Shown in pieces: positions 3 to 17,732 of a DNA stretch of 20,000 bases. Position 1 is the stretch's first letter. Each line of letters starts with the position of its first letter. The translations under genes and the position numbers were made by a program. The notes beneath the pieces are model-generated. The model worked only from the letters and a program-made list of their open reading frames with translations. It was not told the DNA's origin and did no database searches. Origin of the DNA: an uncultured virus (IMG/VR IMGVR_UViG_3300027833_000041) (lineage: Duplodnaviria > Heunggongvirae > Uroviricota > Caudoviricetes); the IMG/VR virus record IMGVR_UViG_3300027833_000041. The stretch is one strand, 5' to 3'.

Positions 3-3000
3 GTACCCGCTGCGGTGGCTAAATCTTTTATGGCCCGCACATTTGCTAACTCCGGCAGAATCGGCGTGTTTAAAAAAGACGGTACCGTTAAGAAAGACTC
101 TAGGCAAGATTTCTTTTATAATGTAGCGGACGTACAGAGCGCTCTTGTAGGCGAAGGCAAGCTTTACACACAAGAGGAATGGGATAACGCTGAAACAATG
201 GCAGCAAGCGCTGACGTTAAAGCAAGCTACTTGAATGGTAAGTTTGAAAATTCCGCTGAATTGCAGGCGCAAGACGCAGCTACAGCAAATGCAGCATGGG
301 AGCTAACCAGCACTATAGTTAAAGGGCTTAAAAACTACAGTCCAGATGTCCAGGCAATGGTTATTGCAGCGATGAATTCCGGTACAAATACAGTAGCTAG
401 GGTAGCTGCTCCGGTTACGCATATAGCTGAAGGTGCAACTTCTAAAAACACTAAAAGTTACAGATACGAGCATGCCACACCAGCAAGAGCTATTCTAGCA
501 TTAATGTTTAAAAGCTACGTACAAGGTGGCAAATCTATAGACATGGACGCTCTTAAGGCTGATTATAAGGTAGCTATTATACCGTTAGCTATGGACAAAG
601 TTGTTACTGCCGCCGGCTTTGCTGCTCGTCAGGCTATTGGCTATGTTCCCGGACAAACACCTTGGTATAAAAGATATTACAACATATTTACTTTAGGTAA
701 AATCCAATACGCTTTAAAGCCTTTTGCAGGCGGTGAATTAATAGGTGAAAAATACGCTAAAGCTTACAATACTAAACAATCTTTTGACGTTAACTCTAAA
801 CAGTATTTAAAAGCTGTTAAAGACGTTAAGGCTGTAGAAACTACCAAAGCGTCTAAATCTATAGATACTTCGCTGAGCAAAGAGTTTAATAACATACTAG
901 AGCGCAAAACAGGTGTTGAAGCATTCAAAACATTCTCAGCCGTTCAAGCGCAGAAGCGTGGGGAAAAGAAAGGTAGATTTAAATTCTTTATTGCGCCGAG
1001 CGTTGATGATTTTAGAGGCTTAGTTAACTATGCGTTTGCTGGTAAAGGTAAACAGGGTGAAGCTGATATGAAATGGCTCGAAGATAACCTAATGACGCCT
1101 TACGCTAAAGGTATTGCCGCTATTAATGGTATACGCCAGCAAATAAAACGCGACTTTAAAACCGCAGTTAAAGCATTTCCTAAGCAGTACCAGTTGCTAA
1201 ATAAGGAGATCGGAAAGACAGGTTTTACTTATGATCAAGCTGTTAGAGTGTACCTGTGGGGTAAAGCAGGTATTAAAGTACCAGGCTTGTCACAGAAGGA
1301 TACGAAAATACTGCAAGACGCTATTCGTGAAAATCCGGAGTTAATGGACTTTGCAGATGCAATGCTTGTTGTTGCCCGACGAGATACGTGGATGGAGCCG
1401 AGCGAACATTGGTCGGCAAGTACATTGCTGTCAGATCTTAACAGTATGACCGAGAAGATTGGCCGTAAAAAATACTTAGAAGAGTTTATAGCGAACGCTG
1501 ATGCAATATTTACCGAGGAAAACCTAAACAAGATTGAGGCATTGTACGGTAGAGCACATCGTGACGCTATTGTGGACGCTTTGTATTCAATGACTAACGG
1601 TACAAACCGTGAGAAAAACACTAACAAGCAAATTAATGCTTGGTTGAATTGGATTAATGGTTCTACAGGTGCGATTATGTTCTTTAACAGACGCTCTGCA
1701 TTATTGCAGATGCTTTCTACTGTTAACTTTATAAACTACTCTGATAACAACCCTCTTAAGGCAGCCGCAGCGTTTGCTAATCAAAAGCAATACTGGACTG
1801 ACTGGGCTATGATATTTAACTCAGACAAACTTAAGGAGCGCCGGGGCGGATTAAAGCAGGACGTAAGTTCTAACGAAATAGCTAGTATAGCTAACGCAAA
1901 CAAGAACAGCCCTCAAGCTATTTTAGCTAGGTTATTGCAATTAGGTTTTACACCTACTCAAATTGCAGATAGTATGGCTATTGCATCTGGGGGTGCTACA
2001 TTCTATCGTAATCGCGTTAACACGTATCTTAAAAAAGGCATGACCCAAAAAGAAGCTGAGCAGCAAGCTTTCTTGGATTTCTCTAAGATATCAGATGAAA
2101 CACAGCAGTCTTCAGATCCAGCGCTAGTTTCTCAGGTGCAAAGAAGCAACCTAGGTCGTCTTGTATTTGCTTTCCAAAATACGCCTATGCAAATGACGCG
2201 TTTAATGAAGAAAGACGCGTTGGATATTATTAATGGCCGCGGTGACTGGAGAGCTAAAGTAGCAAGAATTACTTATTACGGAGCGATCCAAAACTTTATA
2301 TTCTCATCCTTGCAAAGCGCATTATTCGCTATGCTACCAGGTTTTGATGACGACGACGAAGATCTTACTGCCGCTGAATTAGATAAGAAAAACGCAAAAG
2401 AAGAAGCTAAGATAGCTAGAGTGTTAAACAGTATGCTCGATACTCTGCTTAGAGGCTCAGGCGTATACGGAGCGGTTTTCTCTACTGTTAAAAACGTTAT
2501 TAGAGAATACAACAAGCAAGAGGAAAAAGGATTTATGTCTGAACATGCTTACACTGTGCTGTCTTTATTTAATATATCACCGCCTATTGGCTCTAAGGCT
2601 CGTAAAATACATAGTGCTATTCAAACAAGAAAGTTTGAGAAAGACGAGATTGCAGCACGTGGCTGGGGCGTAGTAGCAGACGGTAGATTAGATTTAGGCC
2701 CAAATTGGAGTATATTAGGTAAAGTTTTATCTGCCGCGGTTAGTGTACCGCTTGATCGTGTGGTAGATGAGCTTACTTCTATTAGCGAAGCATTCGATGC
2801 GCGTAACAAAGCGTGGCAGCGTATAGCATTAGCCTTAGGCTGGAAAACGTGGGACGTGGGTGCTATAGAGGAAAACGCTGAAGCTATTAAAGCAGCCGCT
2901 AAGAAAAAACGCAAGGAAGCGGGAACTAAGAAGGCAAAAGAAACCCGCAGAAAAAACAAGCCGAAAAAAATAGAAGCTAGAAAAAAGAAAGAGCAAGAAT

Positions 3001-3053
3001 TAGAATTAATGACCCCCGCTGAAATGACTGAGTATTTAAATAAAAACAAATAA
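3..3053 (+). CDS. Large phage structural protein, probably an internal virion/ejection protein (5'-truncated)
   Basis: ORF of at least 1012 aa. The frame is open to the window edge upstream of the GTG at 15. Predominantly helical, Ala-rich sequence with a Lys-rich C-terminus, directly before the endolysin (TAATG overlap at 3051-3055). Function inferred from size and position. Confidence 0.65.
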   Translation, partial: VPAAVAKSFMARTFANSGRIGVFKKDGTVKKDSRQDFFYNVADVQSALVGEGKLYTQEEWDNAETMAASADVKASYLNGKFENSAELQAQDAATANAAWELTSTIVKGLKNYSPDVQAMVIAAMNSGTNTVARVAAPVTHIAEGATSKNTKSYRYEHATPARAILALMFKSYVQGGKSIDMDALKADYKVAIIPLAMDKVVTAAGFAARQAIGYVPGQTPWYKRYYNIFTLGKIQYALKPFAGGELIGEKYAKAYNTKQSFDVNSKQYLKAVKDVKAVETTKASKSIDTSLSKEFNNILERKTGVEAFKTFSAVQAQKRGEKKGRFKFFIAPSVDDFRGLVNYAFAGKGKQGEADMKWLEDNLMTPYAKGIAAINGIRQQIKRDFKTAVKAFPKQYQLLNKEIGKTGFTYDQAVRVYLWGKAGIKVPGLSQKDTKILQDAIRENPELMDFADAMLVVARRDTWMEPSEHWSASTLLSDLNSMTEKIGRKKYLEEFIANADAIFTEENLNKIEALYGRAHRDAIVDALYSMTNGTNREKNTNKQINAWLNWINGSTGAIMFFNRRSALLQMLSTVNFINYSDNNPLKAAAAFANQKQYWTDWAMIFNSDKLKERRGGLKQDVSSNEIASIANANKNSPQAILARLLQLGFTPTQIADSMAIASGGATFYRNRVNTYLKKGMTQKEAEQQAFLDFSKISDETQQSSDPALVSQVQRSNLGRLVFAFQNTPMQMTRLMKKDALDIINGRGDWRAKVARITYYGAIQNFIFSSLQSALFAMLPGFDDDDEDLTAAELDKKNAKEEAKIARVLNSMLDTLLRGSGVYGAVFSTVKNVIREYNKQEEKGFMSEHAYTVLSLFNISPPIGSKARKIHSAIQTRKFEKDEIAARGWGVVADGRLDLGPNWSILGKVLSAAVSVPLDRVVDELTSISEAFDARNKAWQRIALALGWKTWDVGAIEENAEAIKAAAKKKRKEAGTKKAKETRRKNKPKKIEARKKKEQELELMTPAEMTEYLNKNK

Positions 3054-3795: not shown

Positions 3796-4146
3796 ATGAA
3801 AAACACAATCCTTTTATTAATAGCATTTACACTTTGCTCGTTTGCTTCTAGTACTATTAGCAAGCGAGGTATAGTTTTAGTGCATTACAACGCGGGTTTT
3901 AACGCTGCAAACAATTATGTAGATGTTGTTAAAATTAAAGACGCTAAAATATTCAAAGCTACCATTGATGGTAACGCAACTCTTAAGCAAGACGAGCGCA
4001 TAAGATCAGTGCCAACTTTAATACTGTATAAAAACGGTAAAGAAATTATGAGATGGGAAGCGGGTATTGATTTGTCTTTAAAGCATATAGATTACCGCGA
4101 AATACAAAAGGAAGTTGACCAGCTAACAGGAGCTAATAAGTTTTAA
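3796..4146 (+). CDS. Exported thioredoxin-fold protein lacking CxxC
   Basis: Signal peptide MKNTILLLIAFTLCSFA. IVLVHYNAGFNAAN occupies the position of the thioredoxin VLVDFWAxWCxxC segment, and the cis-Pro segment IRSVPTLILYKNGKE is retained. Confidence 0.75.
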   Translation: MKNTILLLIAFTLCSFASSTISKRGIVLVHYNAGFNAANNYVDVVKIKDAKIFKATIDGNATLKQDERIRSVPTLILYKNGKEIMRWEAGIDLSLKHIDYREIQKEVDQLTGANKF

Positions 4147-4148
4147 GC

Positions 4149-5240
4149 ATGAAAAATTTACTTATAACATTTTTTATATCAACCTCGGCGTTTGGGCAGG
4201 GATTGTTAAAGTACAGCACGTTGTACACCAGTGTGTACGGAGCGTCGCCAATGGAAGCACAGTCAGAGTACTTTGTTTCTCAAGGTGGGGACCTAATGGA
4301 TATAACCATTGAAAACCCGTTTGATTACAGATATACATTTGGCATTCGCCGTGTGGCTCGTTACGATTACGAAAAAAGACAAAACCCATTTTACGATGGC
4401 CACAACCAGTCTACGACATCTTTATTCGCGACGGTTGGCGCTGTTGAGGGGTTTGAGTACTTAGCTCAGTTTGATCGCGGCAGGCAGCAAGGCAATGATT
4501 ATATAAACCAGCGTTACTTCCTTAGGTACTTAGCTAACTATTGGATGGTAAAAGCAGAGCTGTTTAACCAAGGGCTAGTTAATTTAGATTACACTCAGGT
4601 TGAAGTAAGAGGTAGACTGCACGTTGGTGAAGTTGATTTTAGCTTAGGCGTTGCAGCGAGACAGCACCAAGCTTATGGCTACAACCCTATTGCGGAATAT
4701 TTAGTTAACAACCAATGGTGGGACTTAGTACGCGGTATGGGTTACCAAGATATCTATTTCGGTATTGATTACGATAACGACGATGAGGTGGAAGACGGGG
4801 ATTGGTATTGGCTAGACCCTAACGGTAATAAAGTTGCGGATACAGATCTTGATTTTAGAAAGTATATATATGGTGATATTGTAAACACGTACAACGCAGA
4901 GCAGTTATCAGGCATTGGCGCGCTTGGCTCTTTATCGGCCATAGTTGGTATTGATTACTACCACTATTCAGAAAAATTTTGGATGCACTCATGGGCGAGT
5001 ATGTTACCGTGGCACATGCATATTATAGGAGACCACGAGTTTTCCTACGAGCAGTTTGCTGATGAGCTAGAAAATACAAATCATTTTATACCAGGGCAAT
5101 GGATCGACTATAACTTCGGTGGTGTCATCGGCTATAAGATAGGATTGAACTGGGGTATATTCGCGGAAGGTGAGTATATGAAATACTGGGATAAAGAAGT
5201 GTTCGAAATAAAAGCAGGTATTAATTACCAATTTAGATAA
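4149..5240 (+). CDS. Probable outer-membrane beta-barrel protein
   Basis: Signal peptide MKNLLITFFISTSAFG/Q. Tyr/Trp/Phe-rich with alternating amphipathic strands (e.g. VEVRGRLHV, WGIFAEGEY). Ends in the beta-signal-like EIKAGINYQFR. Confidence 0.65.
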   Translation: MKNLLITFFISTSAFGQGLLKYSTLYTSVYGASPMEAQSEYFVSQGGDLMDITIENPFDYRYTFGIRRVARYDYEKRQNPFYDGHNQSTTSLFATVGAVEGFEYLAQFDRGRQQGNDYINQRYFLRYLANYWMVKAELFNQGLVNLDYTQVEVRGRLHVGEVDFSLGVAARQHQAYGYNPIAEYLVNNQWWDLVRGMGYQDIYFGIDYDNDDEVEDGDWYWLDPNGNKVADTDLDFRKYIYGDIVNTYNAEQLSGIGALGSLSAIVGIDYYHYSEKFWMHSWASMLPWHMHIIGDHEFSYEQFADELENTNHFIPGQWIDYNFGGVIGYKIGLNWGIFAEGEYMKYWDKEVFEIKAGINYQFR

Positions 5241-5849: not shown

Positions 5850-6133
5850 TGTATAAACAAAACTCACCGTTCAAAAAAGTCAGAAAGACTAAAGAAGGTT
5901 TAGCTCTTAAACGATGGTTTAAAGAAGACTGGAGAACACCTAGTGGTAGTAAAGACTACAGCGACGGTGATGTTGTGTTTAGACCTACAAAGAAAGTTAG
6001 CAAAGATACTCCTAAAACGTACAGTGAGTTAAGTCCTTCAGACATAGCTGCCGGCAGAAGAGAAAGAAAAGCTAAAGGCAGAGTATCGAAATACGATAGA
6101 TCAGAACTAAAGAAAAACAAAAAGAAAAAATGA
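5849..6133 (+). CDS. Small basic phage protein (GLALKRWFKEDW...RPTKKVSKDTPKT)
   Basis: 94 aa, coupled on both sides (TAATG and ATGA). N-terminus MYKQNSPFKK resembles MYKQNPKSP of the 5249 ORF. Confidence 0.75.
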   Translation: MYKQNSPFKKVRKTKEGLALKRWFKEDWRTPSGSKDYSDGDVVFRPTKKVSKDTPKTYSELSPSDIAAGRRERKAKGRVSKYDRSELKKNKKKK

Positions 6134-6537
6134 GAAAAGGAATCGGACCTAAACAGCTAGGCTCTCCGCTAAAGCTAGACAAAGGAAGAAAAAAGGGTAA
6201 AAAAAATCGCAAAGACTATAGTCAAGACGCTACATTTAATGATTATGATGTAATGAAAGCTTCAATGCCTGACACTTACGCTCCTTCCGATACTATATTT
6301 AAATCATTCAGCATCGATGGGGGAGTTTCAGCAAATAAAGGAGCGAGCCAAGCACAGCGAGCTGCTGGGAAAATGGCTGGCGCTGGAAATAGTTATAGCA
6401 CTAGATTTTTGCAGCCTAATGACCGCGTTCAATATAGAACCACAAACGAGGCCGGCCAAAGTGGAATTACTACGTTAACCAAGTACAATAAAAAAGATAT
6501 GGTTGACTCTGTTGTTAAAAAGAAAAACAAAAAATAA
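6130..6537 (+). CDS. Basic hypothetical protein
   Basis: 135 aa, ATGA overlap with the upstream gene, GSPLK near the N-terminus, Lys-rich ends; stops just before the terminator. Confidence 0.7.
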   Translation: MRKGIGPKQLGSPLKLDKGRKKGKKNRKDYSQDATFNDYDVMKASMPDTYAPSDTIFKSFSIDGGVSANKGASQAQRAAGKMAGAGNSYSTRFLQPNDRVQYRTTNEAGQSGITTLTKYNKKDMVDSVVKKKNKK

Positions 6538-6543
6538 ATAATA

Positions 6544-6578
6544 AAAGGGGACCCAATTACGGATCCCCTTTATTTTTT
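6544..6578. terminator. Bidirectional rho-independent terminator between convergent blocks
   Basis: AAAGGGGA (6544-6551) pairs with TCCCCTTT (6564-6571), with an inner CC/GG pair and AATTAC loop. A T-run follows on + and an A-rich run precedes (T-rich on -). Lies between the stops at 6537 (+) and 6578 (-). Confidence 0.85.
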
Positions 6579-8296
6579 TAACCATCACAAGCAACGCAAT
6601 CATCCATTGCAGCTGCAGCTAAATCGCCCCGCAGCACTGATTCCGTCCTCGTGTAATACAAGGTTTTAACACCTTGCTTCCAAGCTTCCATATGGACTTT
6701 GTTAATCCACTTTGGTGTAGCTTCAGAAGGGAAAGCTAGATTTAAACTAACCGATTGGTCAATGTACTGCTGCCGTATTCCGGCTTGCCTTACTAATTCC
6801 AATTGGTTAATTTCTTTAAACGTTTTAAATACGTTCTTAATTGGCTCGTCCCAATCACCCATTAACAAACCATCGAGTTCTTCGATGTTCTGCACTGAGC
6901 CGCCATCGGCTAGGATTTGATTCCAAATCTTTTCAGTGTTTATTTCATTATCTTCTAAAACACTTTCAAGAACAGGGTTTCTACGTATGAAAGTACCTTT
7001 AGCACTTTGCTCTGTAAATACGTTCGCGGCCCACGGCTCAATGCCTGGAGAAACGTTCCCAGCCAGTTTACTATTACTAACGGTAGGAGCAATAGCCCTA
7101 AGATGAGTGTTACGCATCCCAGCACCGACGCACCAAAGAGGTTCACCATAGACATCGGCCAGGTCCCTTGAAGCGCGCTCGCTTTCAATCTTGATTTGAG
7201 AGAATATTTTTCTTGTTTCATATTGTGCTGATAATCCTTCAAAAGGTATGCCTCTGTCTTGCAAGTATGTATGCCAGCCTAAGACGCCAAGACCTAATGG
7301 TCTACCCTTAACTGCTGAGCGCACTGCATTTTCAAAACCACGCAAGCCTTTTGCTCGTTGTATAAATTCTTCCATAACACCATCTAAGAACCATGTAGCA
7401 TGGTAAATAAGATCAGTGCCTTTCCATTCATCGTACTTAGACAAGTTAAGCGAGCTCAAACAACATACAAAGCTGTGTGACTCGTCTGTATGCAGTGTAA
7501 TCTCACTACATATGTTTGTCATATGTACTTTTAAACCATTTGACTTATATGCTTCTGGATTGTTCTTATTAACGTTCCCTTTAAACATAATGTACGGTTC
7601 TCCAGTTGCTTTTCGCTTTCTAAGAAGTTTACTCCATCGAGTTCTTGCTTCCTTATCGCCTTGTTCAAGTCGTCGCATAAACTTATCACCAACAATTGCG
7701 CACTGATGGAGATTAAGCGATTGTCGGTTAACATCGCCCTTCGGTTCTCTGATTTCCAACCACTCTTCAAAATCAGGGTGTTCAATGTTGATGTTAACTG
7801 ATGCTGCTCCTCTTCTAACAGATCCTTGATTAGTTGCAAGGATTGTTGAGTCATAGATTTTGCAAAAAGGTACGACTCCGTCTGATGTTCCATTTCCTGT
7901 AATTTTAGCTCCGGCGGGTCTTATCATATTAATGCCAACACCCACACCGCCACCGTGTTTTGCTAGCAACATCATTTCTAAGTTCTTAGAGCCGATATCC
8001 TGGATACTATCCGCGACATCGATTCCAAAGCAACTAATCGGTAAGCCTCTATCGGTACCGGTATTTGAAAGTACAGGAGAAGCCAGGTTAAGCCAACCTT
8101 TCCATATGTAATCAAAAAATACATCAGCAAGTTCTGGTTTATATAATCTTCGTGCAACTGTTTTAGCTACACGTTCGTAAGCATCTTTGGGGGTCTCGCC
8201 TTGCAGCAAGTACCCACCAGAGATTGTTTTTCTGTATACTTCGGTATCGCCCCACTCCGGGTAGTCGGTACCTTTTACCCATTCATTATTCCACAT
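6578..8296 (-). CDS. nrdA: Class I ribonucleotide reductase alpha subunit (compact, apparently no ATP cone)
   Basis: Motifs PISCF, GGGVG, TNICSEI (N-x-C-x-E), VCCLSSLN, AIAPTVS, KTLYY (Tyr pair) and C-terminal CVAC. Confidence 0.95.
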   Translation of the reverse strand: MWNNEWVKGTDYPEWGDTEVYRKTISGGYLLQGETPKDAYERVAKTVARRLYKPELADVFFDYIWKGWLNLASPVLSNTGTDRGLPISCFGIDVADSIQDIGSKNLEMMLLAKHGGGVGVGINMIRPAGAKITGNGTSDGVVPFCKIYDSTILATNQGSVRRGAASVNINIEHPDFEEWLEIREPKGDVNRQSLNLHQCAIVGDKFMRRLEQGDKEARTRWSKLLRKRKATGEPYIMFKGNVNKNNPEAYKSNGLKVHMTNICSEITLHTDESHSFVCCLSSLNLSKYDEWKGTDLIYHATWFLDGVMEEFIQRAKGLRGFENAVRSAVKGRPLGLGVLGWHTYLQDRGIPFEGLSAQYETRKIFSQIKIESERASRDLADVYGEPLWCVGAGMRNTHLRAIAPTVSNSKLAGNVSPGIEPWAANVFTEQSAKGTFIRRNPVLESVLEDNEINTEKIWNQILADGGSVQNIEELDGLLMGDWDEPIKNVFKTFKEINQLELVRQAGIRQQYIDQSVSLNLAFPSEATPKWINKVHMEAWKQGVKTLYYTRTESVLRGDLAAAAMDDCVACDG

Positions 8297-8444
8297 TATC
8301 TAATACTTTTTTACTTAAAAATAAAGGGCTGCCATCTTTGTAGCTAATCTGCCATACGTGTTCTTTTTCAACAACAATAAGCGGTCGTCCCTTAAATAAT
8401 TTTGGGTATTTTTCTAATACGTATTCTTTTATTTTATTTTCCAT
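8286..8444 (-). CDS. Small hypothetical protein (52 aa) between nrdB and nrdA
   Basis: Manually translated as MENKIKEYVLEKYPKLFKGRPLIVVEKEHVWQISYKDGSPLFLSKKVLDNVE. Its ATG overlaps the nrdB stop (TAATG) and its end overlaps the nrdA start by 11 nt. Confidence 0.65.
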   Translation of the reverse strand: MENKIKEYVLEKYPKLFKGRPLIVVEKEHVWQISYKDGSPLFLSKKVLDNVE

Positions 8445-9412
8445 TACCATATGTCTTCAAAATCTTCCCCTTCGTTAGCTTTAGAATAGTCTGTCGGTCT
8501 AATTGCAAAGAAATCAGTATGTGTTACACCACCTGTAAGATGGTAAAACCAATCTAGTTTCTTAGCCGATCCTTCCACGAAAGGAAAATAATTACCGAGA
8601 TCAATATAGCCAAGCTCAACAAGCTTTTCATTTGTTCTCTTTTTAATAAAATTCTTTAAATCTTCAGCAGCTATGCCTTCAATATCACCAGCCTCAAACA
8701 TTTTATCTATGTAATCTTCTTCAAGCTTTACCATAGTAGCCGCGGCATTAATAACATCTTCTCGACATTGCTCCATTAATTTAGCATCTTCTTCGCACAT
8801 ATGGCGAAACAGCTGGCATCCCATTTTACTGTGCAGCGATTCATCTCTTACGCTCCACTTCATCTGCTGGCCAATACCTTTAAGCAAATTGCGTAGTTGG
8901 AAAGAATACAACACAGCAAAAGCTGAGTACAGACTAACGCCTTCCGCAAACGCGCTGAATACAGCCAGTGATTTAGCTATGCCTAACTTATCTGTACCAT
9001 CGTATGCGACTAGATTATCAAACCTAGAGGCTGTTGCGGGCTCGTGTAAGAAGGCTTCATAATCTTCTAAGCCTAACGTCTCATTGAGGTAACTATAAGC
9101 TACCGCGTGGACTGTTTCTTGTGAGCCAAACATCATAGCCATCTGCTGTATTTCGTGCTTAGGGAACCAGCCAACAACTTTTTGTGTCCAGTAATCAGAC
9201 ACAGCGCACTCTGTCTGTGCAAAACCTAAAAGTATATTACCCACTAAGTTTTTTTCAGCGGGCGTAAGCTTCTCGTTCCAGTCTTTGATGTCGCTTTGCA
9301 TTGATATTTCAGTGTGCAACCAAAATGCTTGTGCTTGTTTTAACCAACCTTCCGTGTAATATTCTGGATATTCAAAAGGCTTGTAAGCTATTCGTTCATT
9401 AAACAACCCCAT
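8444..9412 (-). CDS. nrdB: Class I ribonucleotide reductase beta subunit
   Basis: Motifs YKPFEYP, AFW, AQTE (first metal ligand), ETVH...Y, AEGVSLYSAF, VRDESLH and C-terminal TDFF...DY. Confidence 0.95.
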   Translation of the reverse strand: MGLFNERIAYKPFEYPEYYTEGWLKQAQAFWLHTEISMQSDIKDWNEKLTPAEKNLVGNILLGFAQTECAVSDYWTQKVVGWFPKHEIQQMAMMFGSQETVHAVAYSYLNETLGLEDYEAFLHEPATASRFDNLVAYDGTDKLGIAKSLAVFSAFAEGVSLYSAFAVLYSFQLRNLLKGIGQQMKWSVRDESLHSKMGCQLFRHMCEEDAKLMEQCREDVINAAATMVKLEEDYIDKMFEAGDIEGIAAEDLKNFIKKRTNEKLVELGYIDLGNYFPFVEGSAKKLDWFYHLTGGVTHTDFFAIRPTDYSKANEGEDFEDIW

Positions 9413-9558
9413 TAGCCCTCAGTTTGAAATGCAATATCAAAAAACGGTAAGTAGAGCACGTGTGATGTCATGTCCTCTGCATAATAAGATCGGGCACCTA
9501 TTAAGACGCCTGGGTAAAAACCTATTGTGATAGCCCAGCCTTTATTGTTTTCGCTCAT
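9412..9558 (-). CDS. Small hypothetical protein (48 aa)
   Basis: Manually translated as MSENNKGWAITIGFYPGVLIGARSYYAEDMTSHVLYLPFFDIAFQTEG. Its stop overlaps the nrdB ATG (TAATG). Confidence 0.7.
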   Translation of the reverse strand: MSENNKGWAITIGFYPGVLIGARSYYAEDMTSHVLYLPFFDIAFQTEG

Positions 9559-9709
9559 ATTTGTTTATTTGCTCTATTAGTTCTTTATAAATTACTCTGC
9601 CGCGTACATTCCACGACCACTTAACCCATTTTTCTATCTTTCGCTCTGCGTACTTTTTCCTGGCGACTGCTTTTGTTTCTCCAGGATCAGTTGAATTGTT
9701 TCGTCGCAT
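9542..9709 (-). CDS. Small basic hypothetical protein (55 aa)
   Basis: Manually translated as MRRNNSTDPGETKAVARKKYAERKIEKWVKWSWNVRGRVIYKELIEQINKYERKQ. Fills the 9559-9633 gap and overlaps the endonuclease 3' end by 76 nt. Confidence 0.5.
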   Translation of the reverse strand: MRRNNSTDPGETKAVARKKYAERKIEKWVKWSWNVRGRVIYKELIEQINKYERKQ

Positions 9710-10116
9710 TCTTTCTGATTTTGTGGTTTATACAATGTGAACGGCTCTAGTTTGTTTTCAGCTATATATTTTTTAAAAAGCTTCCAGCGCATCGGAAATG
9801 ATTCGTTAGCTCTACCTTTAGTTTCAATAATAAAGTGCTTGCCTACGAAATCGGGGGTGTATTTAATATTGAGGATCTTTTTATTTCCTCTATTAGTAAA
9901 TTCGCCTTTACCGTTCCCCGTCCGCTCGTAACTTTCAAATGGGAAATCAAATGCTTGTTGCAATTCGAATGTTTCTCCTTCATATAACGCTGCTATTTTG
10001 GCTTTTCTTAAAGCCATGTACATATACTTTTCTAGCCCTGAGGCAAAGTTGATACCGTCATACGATACCTTCTTTGCTCTTACAGGTCCTTTCTTTCTAC
10101 TATATTTCTTTTTCAT
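9634..10116 (-). CDS. T7 endonuclease I-like Holliday junction resolvase
   Basis: Motifs FASGLE, YTPDF and IIETKG (PD-(D/E)xK). Start re-placed to ATG 10116 (MKKKYS), just after the upstream stop at 10118. Confidence 0.85.
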   Translation of the reverse strand: MKKKYSRKKGPVRAKKVSYDGINFASGLEKYMYMALRKAKIAALYEGETFELQQAFDFPFESYERTGNGKGEFTNRGNKKILNIKYTPDFVGKHFIIETKGRANESFPMRWKLFKKYIAENKLEPFTLYKPQNQKECDETIQLILEKQKQSPGKSTQSER

Positions 10117-10117
10117 A

Positions 10118-10363
10118 TTACTCCTCGGAGCTCGTTGCTTCATATTTTTCTTTAGCTTTTTGCAAATACAAGACGGCATCCATAAGTTCTTCTTGTAAAT
10201 GATTTAGCCAAGCGAGCATCTCACTAGGGTCATCTTCGAGAGTAACACCGTATTTTTCATAGCCGACATTTGAACGGCCTACAAACTTTTGGCAGACACG
10301 ACGCACAACAGGGTCGCGAAACTGCATTGGCACAATAGTGTCGTGTGATTTTATAGGTTTCAT
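10118..10363 (-). CDS. Small phage protein, possible all-alpha NTP pyrophosphatase (MazG-like)
   Basis: RSNVGYEKYGVTL...WLNHLQEELMDAVLY; the acidic EExxD helix resembles all-alpha NTP-PPase metal-binding helices. Confidence 0.55.
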   Translation of the reverse strand: MKPIKSHDTIVPMQFRDPVVRRVCQKFVGRSNVGYEKYGVTLEDDPSEMLAWLNHLQEELMDAVLYLQKAKEKYEATSSEE

Positions 10364-11196
10364 AGTGTATTGGTTTTAGATAGTAAGTAGTCAGAAAAAG
10401 AATTATTCTCTGGCATTGTTTGTTTTACAAACGACCCGTTAACCATAGAGCCACGTCTATTAGAAATCTCATCGTAAGCAGACTCAATGCAATCTTCAAT
10501 ACGGACGCCTCCAAGGTGGGCAAGGTTGGTGAGCACAACAACGCAATCGCCAATAGCATCAATAAACTCCTCGTTATCATTCCTAAGTACAGCTTGAGCA
10601 AGTTCTCCTGCTTCTTCATATAATTTAATTAATTGTGTTTTTGTATCGCCTTTGGTATATATACCGCGCTCGTCCGCCCATCTGCGAATGTCGCCGTATA
10701 TTGTATCGCCATGGTCTTCTTTTGAGTGCACAACACTATTGTGCCGCGCTTTGTCAAATTCAAACATGGCTTTATTATAAACATAACAGCGCTCTGAATT
10801 AAAGCGTGAGGTTAGTGCGTTGTCCACAATCCACTTTGATAATTCAACGTCTAATGTAACGCGATGGCCTAATGGTGTTACCCAGCTTAAGCCTAATTCA
10901 TCCATAAGTCGCCCTTTGAGTTTGTTTAATGGCACAGGGAATGTTGTTGTTTGATCGGTAATGTTTACTCTCATTTGTTTTGGTTTAAAAAGGTTTTTGT
11001 ATAATTCAGTGTCAACTCTATAGCCGTAAGACTTTTGAAGTTCTATCTCCAACTGTGATACCTCATCGATATCTTCACCCGTAAATAGAACTTCGTATTC
11101 GTCTGGAGCGTAGCCTTGCTGCTCCGTTACTCTCTTATTAAGATCACGTGTTACGCCTATTTTTTTACCAGGTATGTGATAAATATAGTATGTCAT
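10360..11196 (-). CDS. Fusion protein: N-terminal GIY-YIG-like domain plus C-terminal MazG-like NTP pyrophosphohydrolase
   Basis: N-terminal YYIYHIPGKKIGVTRDLNKR...LEIELQ. C-terminal IRRWADERGI...QLIKLYEEAGELAQAV...FIDAIGDCVVVLTNLA...CIESAYDEISNRRG matches the MazG EExxE...DxxxD pattern. Confidence 0.8.
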   Translation of the reverse strand: MTYYIYHIPGKKIGVTRDLNKRVTEQQGYAPDEYEVLFTGEDIDEVSQLEIELQKSYGYRVDTELYKNLFKPKQMRVNITDQTTTFPVPLNKLKGRLMDELGLSWVTPLGHRVTLDVELSKWIVDNALTSRFNSERCYVYNKAMFEFDKARHNSVVHSKEDHGDTIYGDIRRWADERGIYTKGDTKTQLIKLYEEAGELAQAVLRNDNEEFIDAIGDCVVVLTNLAHLGGVRIEDCIESAYDEISNRRGSMVNGSFVKQTMPENNSFSDYLLSKTNTL

Positions 11197-11202
11197 TTTG
11201 TC

Positions 11203-12027
11203 TTATTTGCCAACCGATAGCGGTGCTGGTATTGCAGGCTTAGGATTGTAGTTTTTAATAGCTATATCGCTGAACTCCGGGATGATCACCTCGTTGTGCA
11301 TTGTGCTATACATACCCTTGGCTAGTTCTAGTTCCGGCATATGCGGCGGCTGTACTCTAGCTAAGTATATTCTAGCTTGCTCTAAGTGATCGTTGTACAA
11401 ATGGCAATCGCCAAGTTGCGCAATTAGTTTACCAGGTTTTAAATTGTTGCCTTTGGCAATCATTTCAAGTAGCAGACCGTACATTGCGATGTCATAGGGT
11501 AAACCTAGGAATACATCCGCCGAGCGTTGCTGCCACATTAAATCTAGCTCGCCATCGTTTACATACAGCTGAAAGCCGTAATGACACGGAGGCAATACCA
11601 TATCTGGCATATCCGCGGGGTTCCAAGCATTAACTATCATACGGCGTGACGTAGGGTTGTTGCGTACGTCGTCCAATACATTAAACAATTGGTCGACACC
11701 GTTAAAGTCGCGCCATTGTTTGCCATATACAGGCCCTAGAGTCTCATCAGAGCGTCCTGAGCGATCGTAATCTGCATTCCAGTATGTAACGCCGTTATCA
11801 CGAAGATATTGCATGTCAGTGCGTCCGTTTGCAATCCACAGTAACTCGTGAACAGCCATCTTGTGGTACACGCGTTTGTTGGTTAACAAGGGAAAGCCTT
11901 CACTCATGTCGTGTATTAGCATCCTGCCAAATACAGAGCGCGTACCAGTACCTGTGCGATCGTCTTTCTTCTTAGCTAATAGCAGCTCTTGGATTAACGC
12001 TTTATACTGATTTTCGATGTTTGTCAT
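11203..12027 (-). CDS. thyA: Thymidylate synthase-family enzyme with Asn177->Asp (possible dCMP methyl/hydroxymethyl-transferase)
   Basis: Motifs DRTGTGT, GFPLLTNK, ELLW, LGPVYGKQWR, SRRMIVNAWNP, LPPCH (catalytic Cys), QRSADVFLGLPYDI and GDCHLY. Start re-placed to ATG 12027 (MTNIENQY). Confidence 0.9.
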   Translation of the reverse strand: MTNIENQYKALIQELLLAKKKDDRTGTGTRSVFGRMLIHDMSEGFPLLTNKRVYHKMAVHELLWIANGRTDMQYLRDNGVTYWNADYDRSGRSDETLGPVYGKQWRDFNGVDQLFNVLDDVRNNPTSRRMIVNAWNPADMPDMVLPPCHYGFQLYVNDGELDLMWQQRSADVFLGLPYDIAMYGLLLEMIAKGNNLKPGKLIAQLGDCHLYNDHLEQARIYLARVQPPHMPELELAKGMYSTMHNEVIIPEFSDIAIKNYNPKPAIPAPLSVGK

Positions 12028-12283
12028 AATAATATTTGTAGTATTTGTAAATTTGTGGCCATAGCTCTTTAGCGTCAAACGTATTTGGGCTTCGGCTTAA
12101 GCGGCCTTGAATAATAATGTCAATATAAAAGTTCTGCGGGTTTGTTTTCACTTTATCCGCAGCTAATGGCGCAACAACTATTTTGTTTTTCAAGCACCAC
12201 ACCATTGCCTCATACTCTTCTGGTGTGCGATAATAACTGCCAAAGTTTGTTTTCTTGCCTTTAGATTTGTTACCGCTACCCAT
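12002..12283 (-). CDS. Hypothetical protein
   Basis: 93 aa, coupled to the primase-helicase stop (TAATG at 12283); overlaps the thyA-like start. Confidence 0.7.
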   Translation of the reverse strand: MGSGNKSKGKKTNFGSYYRTPEEYEAMVWCLKNKIVVAPLAADKVKTNPQNFYIDIIIQGRLSRSPNTFDAKELWPQIYKYYKYYYDKHRKSV

Positions 12284-13992
12284 TATTCCCAGGGCATTTT
12301 AGCATCGAGTAAGTCTGCAGGGTTATCTATAGACAAATAGTCACCAGAGTCTGGCTGCCATTTGAAATGCGCCTCCGCGCCATTCTCCCCAAGGTTTTGA
12401 AACTTAACCTTGAGCACTTTAGCTTTAACGGTCTTTGCTTCATAGTCTCTATGAATAAGCAAACCGTGGTAAGAGGCATCGTACCACTCACCACCACCTT
12501 TAATATTGTACATAGTTGGCTCCTCAATCTTACCATTTGCATCCTTATACATTTTAGTAGGGTGCGCAACAACAATAACAAGCACGTCGTACTTTTTAGC
12601 AAACGTTTCTATTTTCTGCAGATACTCAAGAGTATATACATTAACATCACCTGACTGGTCGTTCGATCTTACTTTATTAAACGGGTCAATAACCAAGCAC
12701 TTAATCCCTTTGCGCTTTACTAGCTCAGCACCTTTCTTTAACACTGCTTCAAGCGTGTAGCGCTCCATATCTATATGGAAGAAGTTAGTATTGCAGTGAT
12801 CGGCTATTTGGTTCCATCTATCGCTGTATATATCAGCAGCGGTTGGCATTCCACCCCAGCATTTACGCATTAGCTTGTGAGCATGCAAATACGTCGGTTG
12901 GTTTTCTGGTGAGGCAAATGCTGTTTTCCATTCATAATTGCGGTTGTAACCAACAACCATTCGGTCTACAAAATCTGACTTGCCACTGGAAGGTATGCCC
13001 GTAACAGTAATAAACTGCCCAGTGTAAGTGCTGAAGATATCATCGAAGTTGCTAAGGCCAACTTGAAAACCGGGCTTGAAGCCATTGCGAACGAAGTCCG
13101 TGATTTCGTCTTCGATGTCACGGAAGGTTGTGACGTTTTCAAGCGGAACGGGCTTTGCATTCGTAATTCTAGATACGAGTTTTTCTGGTCCATGCTTTAT
13201 TAAATATTCATTAGCGTCCTTACAATCGTCAAACGTAGCTAAAAAACAAACTTCAGAGCCTAATCTACGAATAAGCTCGGTTTGTAGTGCAATTCCTGCT
13301 TCGTCTGAGTCGGTAGCAAGTATGATTTTCTCCTTATCTTCGAAGTAATCAATACAAGCATCTAAGTAATCTAAATTGTTAGTATTAAGTGTAGCGCCAT
13401 TAGGCACTGATATTACATTGCTAATACCAGCTTCGTGCAACGCTAACACATCCATTTCTCCTTCTACAAGGATACAATACTCGTAACCTACAATACTATC
13501 TATATTGTAAAATACTTTCTCAGCACCCTTATATAATTTAAAGTTCTTTCTCCCATCACGATACTTAACATTGATTAAGTCGTCGCCCATGAAATAATTG
13601 AACTTTATAACATTCTCGGCTTTACCGGTCTGTGGCATATATTCACTGCCTTCAGTAACACGTAGCTCGTGTAACGTTTTGCGGGATATACCCCTTGTCT
13701 TAAACCACTCTTCTACTTTCGTACCAACCTCCTGAACAACAAAGGTTTCAGGTTTGACATATGTCTTTTCTGATTTGCCTTTGCGTTCATAGGTGTGTAA
13801 CTGAAATGATTTATCACAGTTGTGACAAGTACCGAGACCACGTTCCCAATCATAAGAAGCGCATTTTTGCTTCTGATTTTCAGGTTTTCTTGTAGAAGAA
13901 CACAGAGGACAAGTCCCCTGCGTTTTACCTTCATCAAGACCATGTTGATTGAACGTGTCAATCACAAATCCATTGATCTCTACTGTCTGCAT
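12283..13992 (-). CDS. T7 gp4/Twinkle-like DNA primase-helicase
   Basis: Zn finger CPLC...CHNC; TOPRIM motifs VEGEMD, SVPNGA, DSDEAG, KDANE; SF4 helicase Walker A TGIPSSGKS, LVIDP, VVAHP. Confidence 0.95.
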   Translation of the reverse strand: MQTVEINGFVIDTFNQHGLDEGKTQGTCPLCSSTRKPENQKQKCASYDWERGLGTCHNCDKSFQLHTYERKGKSEKTYVKPETFVVQEVGTKVEEWFKTRGISRKTLHELRVTEGSEYMPQTGKAENVIKFNYFMGDDLINVKYRDGRKNFKLYKGAEKVFYNIDSIVGYEYCILVEGEMDVLALHEAGISNVISVPNGATLNTNNLDYLDACIDYFEDKEKIILATDSDEAGIALQTELIRRLGSEVCFLATFDDCKDANEYLIKHGPEKLVSRITNAKPVPLENVTTFRDIEDEITDFVRNGFKPGFQVGLSNFDDIFSTYTGQFITVTGIPSSGKSDFVDRMVVGYNRNYEWKTAFASPENQPTYLHAHKLMRKCWGGMPTAADIYSDRWNQIADHCNTNFFHIDMERYTLEAVLKKGAELVKRKGIKCLVIDPFNKVRSNDQSGDVNVYTLEYLQKIETFAKKYDVLVIVVAHPTKMYKDANGKIEEPTMYNIKGGGEWYDASYHGLLIHRDYEAKTVKAKVLKVKFQNLGENGAEAHFKWQPDSGDYLSIDNPADLLDAKMPWE

Positions 13993-14019
13993 TATATTAA
14001 ATTGCGGATTTAATTAATA

Positions 14020-17155: not shown

Positions 17156-17275
17156 TTATAAGCTACCGTCGCGTTCTTCCGAACCCAAGGTGGCATATAT
17201 AACTTGATCATCATTATTTTGAGCAAGCTCGTTCATTACTTTAATTAGGTATTGGTTACATACAGCTGTTGGCAT
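17156..17275 (-). CDS. Possible micro-ORF (39 aa)
   Basis: MPTAVCNQYLIKVMNELAQNNDDQVIYATLGSEERDGSL; fills the gap, with an alternative ATG at 17236. Confidence 0.35.
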   Translation of the reverse strand: MPTAVCNQYLIKVMNELAQNNDDQVIYATLGSEERDGSL

Positions 17276-17732
17276 ATCTAGTTATTTTAGTTTCGTTAGC
17301 ATTAGCTACGGTATGCTTTTCAGCTTCGTAGTAGTTCCAGTAAGCGTCAACCGAGCATTCTGATTTGTATTCATCAGGCATGCATTGTGGCGGCTGTTGC
17401 CATTCTTGAGATGGAATGCCAGGCGGCAAATCCATTAGCGTGTTGTAGCACTTTTCAATTGTCAAGTGCTTCTTACCATAGCGCCGCGTGTACTCGTTTC
17501 CGAGTGCAATCATATGTTCATATAACCAAAGGTAAGCGAGGTCGTTAGAGCGCGCCCAAATGGCCGAGGGATGGTTTTTATGAGTTGCTTTGTACGGCAC
17601 ATCATGGTTACCCAACTCGTGGTGCGCTGTGCATAACAATTGTGCAGACTCAAGAATCATCTTGACTACGTGTTTGTTGTATTGCACTCGCGCAGCTTCA
17701 TCGGGATCGTGGCTTAGGTAAAATATATTCAT
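17256..17732 (-). CDS. Pyrimidine-dimer DNA glycosylase (DenV)-like protein
   Basis: MNIFYL..DP..AA....KHVVKMILESAQLL, HKNHPSAIW and EYTRRYGKKH, recalled as typical of a phage family usually annotated this way. Confidence 0.7.
   Translation of the reverse strand: MNIFYLSHDPDEAARVQYNKHVVKMILESAQLLCTAHHELGNHDVPYKATHKNHPSAIWARSNDLAYLWLYEHMIALGNEYTRRYGKKHLTIEKCYNTLMDLPPGIPSQEWQQPPQCMPDEYKSECSVDAYWNYYEAEKHTVANANETKITRYANSCM

Follow-up and report, generated by a model that had tools for sequence, protein, structure and literature searches.

The pyrimidine preference of ThyA-family enzymes turns on residue 177 of Escherichia coli ThyA. N177D and N229D mutants, as cited in Yang et al. 2021 (PMC8670742), shift preference to deoxycytidine monophosphate (dCMP). 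In the summary of tested enzymes given by Lee et al. 2026 (PMC13326640), Asp177 (N177D) confers selection of dCMP, acidity at position 143 (L143D/E) accompanies hydroxymethylation, and Asn169 (D169N) marks flavin-dependent 5-hydroxy-dCMP synthases. Yang et al. also report that Asp177 is enriched on cytosine-modified contigs and is the top residue separating them from unmodified ones, and that thymidylate synthase and PRA-PH pyrophosphohydrolase domains co-occur on modified contigs; a 2024 preprint (bioRxiv 10.1101/2024.12.05.627091) reports that 5 of 7 virome Asp177 homologues made 5-methyl-dC in E. coli, with the enzyme of phage Xp12 as the positive control. The idea that Asp177 denotes a dCMP methylase is already in print (Yang et al. 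2021) and is the accepted reading for such enzymes. Here, we describe a ThyA homologue encoded in a 20,000-nucleotide stretch from an uncultured Caudoviricetes virus (IMG/VR record IMGVR_UViG_3300027833_000041; the whole stretch is hereafter the window). From its sequence we predict that it is probably a folate-dependent C5-methyltransferase of ThyA fold which the replacement of Asn177 by Asp has switched from deoxyuridine monophosphate (dUMP) to dCMP, with 5-methyl-dCMP as the product. Residue numbers follow E. coli ThyA unless stated, such that Asp179 and Cys148 of the protein itself are positions 177 and 146.

The open reading frame begins with an ATG at 12027 and ends with a TAA at 11205-11203 on the minus strand. 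An alternative longer frame starts from a TTG at 12078; we prefer the start at 12027 because homologues of 274 amino acids (aa) cover the query over 100% of its length, from MTNIENQY onward. The protein matches PF00303 over profile positions 2-266 of 266 (E 4.9e-86), its nearest solved relatives are bacterial ThyA chains (E 9e-73 to 1e-65), and its AlphaFold2 model, built with 40 sequences (mean predicted local distance difference test score [pLDDT] 95.7, predicted template-modelling score [pTM] 0.94), retrieves the thymidylate synthases of E. coli, M. tuberculosis and human first in a Foldseek search (template-modelling [TM] score ~0.89, root-mean-square deviation ~2 A). The full-length family match, the fold, and the catalytic and phosphate-binding residues described next all place it in the ThyA family.

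The motif that drew attention in the first-pass annotation of this DNA is present as claimed, reading QRSADVFLGLPYDI, with its Asp at residue 179 of the protein (codon in Table 1). When the protein is aligned by HMMER to three solved ThyA chains, PFNI is seen changed to PYDI in the same column, and a MAFFT alignment of six proteins, including E. coli thyA (NC_000913), the Xp12 homologue (MT664984) and T4 gene 42 (NC_000866), all taken from their records, confirms the column that had been proposed: the query Asp falls at E. coli N177, beside the Asp of Xp12 (PYDV) and that of gp42. The enzyme thus departs from the class that forms deoxythymidine monophosphate (dTMP; EC 2.1.1.45) at the Asn177 by which that class is recognized. 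Elsewhere it remains close to ThyA (44% identity to the E. coli protein). The catalytic Cys (Cys148, within PPCH) and the phosphate-binding R21, R126, R127 and R166 are intact in the alignment, just as the first-pass annotation had stated, and E58, Y94, H207 and Y209 are present as well; the positions invariant across all six aligned proteins are E58, W80, Y94, R126, R127, C146, R166, S167, D169, H207 and Y209. The same annotation had described the IWDEW segment as altered to YWNAD, which needs a partial correction: the segment is altered, but W80 is retained and only I79, D81, E82 and W83 differ.

Table 1. Coordinates of the ThyA-family gene, its diagnostic codons and its neighbours in the window.
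Feature	Position	Strand	Basis or remark
ThyA-family enzyme, predicted dCMP C5-methyltransferase (5-methyl-dCMP synthase)	11203..12027	minus	274 aa; PF00303, AlphaFold2, Foldseek
GAC codon of Asp179, equivalent to E. coli Asn177, pyrimidine-specificity residue	11493-11491	minus	sequence and MAFFT alignment
Codons of L145-P-P-C148, equivalent to E. coli L143 to C146	11584..11595	minus	catalytic Cys kept; Leu where hydroxymethylases are acidic
Codon of Asp171, equivalent to E. coli D169	11515..11517	minus	Asp kept; alignment and the rule in PMC13326640
YWNAD segment replacing IWDEW	11770..11784	minus	W80 kept, W83 replaced by Asp
T5orf172 (GIY-YIG clan) and MazG/PRA-PH-type pyrophosphohydrolase fusion, 278 aa	10360..11196	minus	PF03819 E 9.3e-07, PF01503 E 1.1e-06, PF10544 E 3.4e-04
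MazG-like catalytic domain of the fusion, residues ~163-247	10456..10710	minus	VIA-align, Foldseek, invariant acidic residues
Conserved 81-aa gene, next after the MazG fusion	10118..10363	minus	cluster 6, in 60/81 loci
Primase-helicase, upstream, same replication/nucleotide-metabolism block	12283..13992	minus	Toprim_2 E 3.7e-14, DnaB_C E 4.6e-07; phrog_239 on the G001 orthologue
Ribonucleotide reductase large subunit	6578-8296	minus	PF02867 E 2.5e-93
Ribonucleotide reductase small subunit	8444-9412	minus	PF00268 E 2.3e-57

The Asp is also not an isolated variant surrounded by close homologues with Asn. The PYD triplet is found in 121 of 121 proteins (the query and the 120 closest database proteins, at 64-97% identity), forming a well-supported clade in which the Asp is fixed, and the closest Asn177 proteins are only ~40-54% identical to the query. 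At the level of loci, L143, H147, D169 and D177 are all present in 81/81 (80 viral contigs and the window), and likewise in one further locus (L251); of these 82 loci, 71 encode the Asp by GAT and 11 by GAC, and the use of both codons indicates that the Asp has been held through synonymous change. To place the clade, we built a FastTree tree of 183 rows, sampling one in four of the clade proteins that reached 260 aa and adding the 150 library representatives with 240 aa or more, as well as E. coli ThyA, Xp12 and gp42; rows below these lengths were excluded. The representative library itself contains the clade only as a 142-aa fragment (P0269), with no full-length member, and the size of the clade cannot be read from it. 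In the tree, the clade is a single branch (31 rows; support 98, starred), which together with two further Asp177 proteins makes up an all-Asp group of 33 rows that has a long stem (support 99, starred). The all-Asp group is nested among Asn177 enzymes that have Asp83 and a C-terminus ending PLSN, a placement that we regard as tentative because its support is 80-93 and unstarred. Residue 177 must have changed at least 9-10 times on this tree, which implies that the N177 switch arose repeatedly. The Xp12 enzyme is 29% identical to the query and sits elsewhere, on a long branch of unsure placement, giving no indication of common descent; judged by alignment and tree, the clade is an independent lineage with the same switch. 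Among the records open to the searches it has no cultured close relative, given that megablast of window positions 9000-14000 against cultured phages gave no match and that every one of the 4206 records returned by tblastn against cultured phages was below 60% identity.

Several further changes are specific to the clade, namely I55A, F62I, I79Y, Y164Q, S180M, H186E, a 4-residue insert after the W80 segment, and a C-terminus two residues longer than that of ThyA (SVGK or SVGN). The YWNAD change is a subfamily trait, and it is unlinked to cytosine use because many Asn177 relatives also have Asp or Asn at position 83: Asn177 rows among the 150 representatives carry WDGD (12), WNGD (6), WVGD (5) and WDAD (3), among other patterns. 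We note in passing that inserts or mobile elements often break up the Asn177 thymidylate synthase genes. Many of these relatives (proteins P0123-P0271, loci L172-L250) are 300-550 aa long and match in 2-4 separate stretches, and genes for GIY-YIG/I-TevI-type endonucleases adjoin Asn177 thymidylate synthase genes in 15 loci (cluster 22).

Whether the enzyme would transfer a methyl or a hydroxymethyl group was left undecided in the first-pass annotation, and the published residue rules support that interpretation in a refined form, favouring methyl. All of the sequence-based checks that the annotation had put forward had outcomes consistent with its interpretation. Leu143 and Asp169 throughout the clade, together with retention of the whole ThyA C-terminal region (the enzyme ends in APLSVGK, with gp42 stopping ~35 alignment columns earlier), point to methyl transfer, and Asp177 combined with a non-acidic 143 and Asp169 in 81/81 loci is the pattern expected of an Xp12-type dCMP methyltransferase. 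The alternative would be a dCMP hydroxymethylase like T4 gp42, in which water is added to the methylene intermediate and the DNA comes to contain 5-hydroxymethylcytosine or a derivative. Such an enzyme would share Asp177, and the changes W83 to Asp and I79 to Tyr, along with the two additional C-terminal residues, could make the closure that keeps water away from the intermediate less tight. We nevertheless consider a hydroxymethylase improbable: position 143 is Leu in 81/81 loci and not the Asp or Glu of hydroxymethylases (PMC13326640), Asp83 is found also in Asn177 relatives, some of which have a dihydrofolate reductase gene as a neighbour (cluster 29, 13 loci), the C-terminal region has not been lost as in gp42, and Pfam and PHROGs searches recognised no glycosyl-, carbamoyl- or other DNA-acting transferase in the nearest virus record (G001; 63,892 bases, rated 100% complete, collinear, ~90% nucleotide identity, ~84-96% over the shared parts, 87 open reading frames). 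Two other enzyme classes were considered and rejected. A 5-hydroxy-dCMP synthase (RB69 gp48 or DLP3 gp80 type) is excluded under the residue rules by Asp169 in 81/81 loci, with no D169N, and a CMP-specific, MilA-type reading was set aside on finding H207 and Y209 kept.

Contextual evidence comes from the gene immediately downstream, which encodes a fusion of a T5orf172 domain to a MazG/PRA-PH-type pyrophosphohydrolase. The fusion gene is at position +1 from the enzyme in 78/81 loci and at +2 in 2/81; the sole locus without it ends 61 bases past the enzyme gene, and the pairing therefore holds in 80/80 loci where downstream DNA exists. A profile built from the fusion protein, which detects only related MazG proteins, finds it in 81/82 clade loci and in 1/161 other thymidylate synthase loci (retrieved with P0138, P0128 and P0122, the last contributing two loci only; ~150 of them Asn177). 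Among Pfam hits of the gene-cluster representatives from these comparison loci (clusters in at least 4 loci; 81/110 scanned, short ones dropped) no MazG family was present, the hits including homing endonucleases, thioredoxin and dUTPase in addition to dihydrofolate reductase and HAD phosphatase.

The C-terminal part of the fusion belongs with the MazG/all-alpha NTP pyrophosphohydrolases by profile (PF03819 at 29.5 bits against a cut-off of 22, PF01503 at 29.4 bits against 21.3), by fold and by its acidic residues. In a model of pLDDT 83, residues 163-247 align by VIA-align with MazG, PRA-PH and cyanophage S-2L MazG-like chains (Z 8.2-10.0), and the metal-binding acidic residues E194, E195, E198, D213 and D217 (fusion numbering, as below) are invariant in 41 sequences; Foldseek with the whole fusion model gave nothing at E 0.001 or better, its list also including mouse dCTPase. 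Residues 1-160 comprise a predicted T5orf172 domain and, after it, a middle region without a family; the domain is supported by the Pfam match in Table 1 and by Atlas look-alikes (score 0.96, with T5orf172 on 11-12% of members). Y6, H7, K12, G14, R22, E33, E50 and N78 in the N-terminus are invariant in 41 sequences, and the fusion is retained clade-wide. The N-terminal domain might be a nuclease, reminiscent of T4 endonuclease II, which cuts cytosine DNA.

A T5orf172-MazG gene beside the enzyme fits a route from dCTP through dCMP to 5-methyl-dCMP. In this route, the MazG-type pyrophosphatase would convert dCTP to dCMP, both feeding the enzyme and keeping ordinary dCTP out of replication; the ThyA homologue would methylate dCMP with methylene-tetrahydrofolate, releasing dihydrofolate; host kinases would carry 5-methyl-dCMP to the triphosphate, which would then replace cytosine as phage DNA is synthesised; and the resulting 5-methylcytosine (5mC) in virion DNA would protect it from restriction enzymes that require unmodified cytosine. 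It is the gene pairing that suggests a dCTPase role for the MazG domain, a domain whose base preference is not readable from sequence. Other Asp177 lineages show related surroundings: in one (L092) a nucleoside triphosphate pyrophosphohydrolase (phrog_173, E 3.4e-13) lies three genes downstream, and in another (L252) dUTPase, dCMP deaminase and the enzyme follow in consecutive order. A further case is viral locus L189, which holds two thymidylate synthase family genes ~3 kb apart (242-889 and 4001-4951), one of Asn177 ThyA type and the other a short, divergent Asp-type gene that comes after a dCMP deaminase fragment; the arrangement suggests a phage that uses one enzyme for dTMP and another for modified dCMP. 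Neither the enzyme nor the MazG gene is present in two cultured relatives recognised through their terminases, one being an Elemovirus of Flavobacterium and the other a spring-water contig.

An automated pipeline would name the gene thymidylate synthase, as the first-pass annotation foresaw: against the NCBIfam equivalog TIGR03284 (cut-off 108.35 bits) the enzyme scores 270 bits, with Xp12 at 99.6 and gp42 at 30.6. Could that name simply be correct? The enzyme would then act on dUMP, mainly or in addition, with the Asp tolerated and the DNA canonical or lightly modified. Beyond the equivalog score, this would accord with a protein that is ThyA-like everywhere except at residue 177, and with its being the only member of its family in five near-complete clade genomes, each of which has exactly one PF00303 gene, with ThyX in 0/5 (control positive in 5/14). 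We assign this alternative a low probability, in view of the preference of the N177D and N229D mutants for dCMP (as cited in PMC8670742), of the fixation of Asp across the clade against the Asn retained by its sister lineages, a contrast that speaks for selection towards another substrate, and of the identity of the fixed partner, which is of MazG type and not a dUTPase, whereas dUTPase genes adjoin some Asn177 genes.

The absence of another thymidylate synthase also bears on a third alternative, in which 5-methyl-dCMP is made but serves mainly as a detour to thymidylate via deamination, of the kind proposed for Xp12-like phages, leaving little or no 5mC in the DNA. The preprint (bioRxiv 10.1101/2024.12.05.627091) proposes that 5mC-specific deaminases encoded alongside enzymes of this kind produce dTTP from 5-methyl-dCTP, and in Xp12 a dCMP deaminase gene is adjacent to the homologue. 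However, a PF00383 deaminase was found in 0/5 of the near-complete clade genomes (control positive in 12/14 genomes), and none was recognised in G001 by Pfam or PHROGs; moreover, the deaminase route of Xp12 coexists with full replacement by 5mC, so that such a detour would not exclude modified DNA. We regard it as very improbable. Tet_JBP (PF12851) was found in 0/5 clade genomes, a count that does not speak for its absence because the control lacked any match too.

The complete relative G001 gives a view of the remainder of the pathway. Its open reading frames include ribonucleotide reductase together with a thioredoxin-like protein, the replication and recombination genes primase-helicase, ligase and ERF, a sigma-70-like factor, GroEL/GroES, terminase, portal, a crAss-type muzzle protein and a PD-(D/E)XK nuclease. 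By Pfam and PHROGs, no second thymidylate synthase, deaminase, deoxynucleoside monophosphate (dNMP) kinase or dihydrofolate reductase was recognised in it, and no DNA polymerase despite the 100% completeness rating. We infer that the route would rely on host kinases, host reductase and the thymidylate supply of the host.

A number of considerations weigh against our preferred assignment of the enzyme as a dCMP methyltransferase within a 5mC pathway. The lack of a recognised phage dNMP kinase, dihydrofolate reductase or deaminase in G001 means that the proposed route leans on host enzymes. The MazG domain has no significant sequence likeness to the T4 dCTPase gp56 by BLASTP (best E 0.05), and the clade is one lineage with conserved gene order, so that the pairing, frequent as it is, counts as roughly one evolutionary event. 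The published residue rules are correlations. The verified Xp12 methylase (L086:45326-46195) has Asn143 and Pro147 in our alignment, which makes positions 143 and 147 loose markers and means that Leu143 is not universal for a methyl product; position 147 differs between modified and unmodified contigs in Yang et al. (PMC8670742), and the clade has the ThyA-type His147. Finally, 2/7 of the Asp177 homologues described in the preprint (bioRxiv 10.1101/2024.12.05.627091) gave no 5-methyl-dC.

A broader joint reading, which we offer as an unlikely extension of the dCMP methyltransferase assignment, would take the two genes as a cassette sufficient for 5mC DNA: an almost unaltered ThyA with N177D followed by a GIY-YIG-clan/MazG fusion, with no need of a phage kinase, deaminase, reductase or recognisable polymerase. 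The fusion would couple dCTP removal to nuclease attack on the cytosine DNA of the host, so that a single polypeptide would do the work of both T4 gp56 and endonuclease II, and the fixation of the cassette in a family known from many marine metagenomes would imply that a sizeable share of marine viral DNA carries fully methylated cytosine.

The predicted ribonucleotide reductase, in the same block as the enzyme, would supply deoxynucleotides. The 81-aa gene after the fusion was examined as a possible second pyrophosphatase, with no Pfam family found, PHROGs of unknown function only, and blank PDB and Atlas searches. Window positions 17256-17732 (minus) encode a 158-aa protein with a weak match to the T4 endonuclease V-type pyrimidine dimer glycosylases (PF03013, E 4.2e-04, below the cut-off), whereas the orthologue in G001 matches phrog_624 strongly (E 1.6e-46). 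A giant protein without a Pfam or PHROG match (in G001 it has 2678 aa, L003:754-8790) is represented by its C-terminal portion at window positions 3-3053 (plus); in G001 its gene is two genes from that of the crAss-type muzzle protein (PF25731, E 6e-15), and the giant protein may be an enzyme carried in the virion, of the sort known from crAss-like or N4-like phages. G001 also encodes GroEL (phrog_5725, E 2e-137) with two GroES-like co-chaperonins (L004:9867-11676, L004:6200-6796), and it contains a 949-aa gene (L002:13750-16599), without a Pfam or PHROG match, between a DUF5872 gene and a 135/142-aa gene. This gene is missing at ~5948-6537 of the window and is an insertion/deletion difference between close strains.

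In public sequencing data, at least half of the sampled words of the 5-kb stretch are present in 15 runs; all 20 rows that hold it, from 11 studies, are labelled marine or seawater, and one DNA run, which may be the source, matches it with no differences at all. Contigs from these runs carry no information on base modification. Contigs from the RNA libraries X15 and X16 (one study) contain parts of the gene, for example 11020-11433 and 11477-11823, with 5-12 differences each; because DNA can occur in such libraries, these contigs are not evidence of expression. With regard to the host, the structural genes are, by terminase likeness, kin to those of Flavobacterium and Cellulophaga phages. One clade member (P0022; 69% identical, on 46 contigs) is named in NCBI as the thymidylate synthase of a Methylophagaceae metagenome-assembled genome, and represents either a phage contig binned with Methylophagaceae or a host hint; the terminase kinship points instead to Flavobacteriia phages.

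If the predicted activity is correct, a widespread family of ~60-kb marine phages replaces cytosine with 5mC, with consequences for restriction evasion in the sea and a bias in sequencing methods that depend on cytosine chemistry. Genome annotation is affected as well, as pipelines will label the gene thymidylate synthase. Because the active site differs from that of ThyA essentially by one residue, the enzyme is also a clean natural experiment on the N177D switch. The underlying principle has been published before, and what is added here is not a new mechanism but a large, sharply delimited marine clade with a ThyA-like enzyme that the equivalog model accepts, a fixed T5orf172-MazG partner and no deaminase.

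The MazG-like enzyme of cyanophage S-2L feeds a monophosphate to a base-modifying enzyme, a role comparable to that proposed here. Its structure (PDB 7ody, from the aminoadenine pathway) resembles the C-terminal domain of the fusion (VIA-align Z 8.4 over 93 residues, Foldseek TMt 0.67-0.69), although it belongs with another base and another partner enzyme and is without the N-terminal T5orf172 domain. With T4 gp42 and gp56 the locus shares the specificity Asp and, in the proposed route, the logic by which a pyrophosphatase makes dCMP while removing dCTP and a ThyA homologue modifies the dCMP. gp42 differs at 23% identity, with Asp143 and no ThyA C-terminal region, and the present phage type differs from T4 in a MazG domain unlike gp56 in sequence and in that no dNMP kinase or glucosyltransferase was recognised in G001.

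Closer parallels are found among the virome Asp177 homologues of PMC8670742 and bioRxiv 10.1101/2024.12.05.627091, which share an environmental phage origin, Asp177 and co-occurrence with a PRA-PH/MazG-type domain; the homologues tested in the preprint were chosen for an adjacent gene of the dCMP-deaminase family, a gene that the clade lacks. The Xp12 homologue (MT664984.1, coding sequence 45326-46195), from a phage with full 5mC replacement, has in common with the enzyme the ThyA fold, the catalytic Cys, the Asp in the N177 column, the PYD triplet and the same expected chemistry, and both genomes encode a class I ribonucleotide reductase. It differs in its low identity and its place in another part of the tree, in Asn143 and Pro147, in a shortened C-terminus, in falling below the TIGR03284 cut-off that the clade protein far exceeds, and in its gene partners, which are dCMP deaminase, dihydrofolate reductase and a HAD hydrolase instead of the T5orf172-MazG fusion. 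A further comparison is with ThyA in which the specificity Asn has been replaced by Asp: the active site is otherwise ThyA-like in both, and the enzyme described here is the natural counterpart of that substitution, fixed in a large clade and accompanied by further clade-specific changes.

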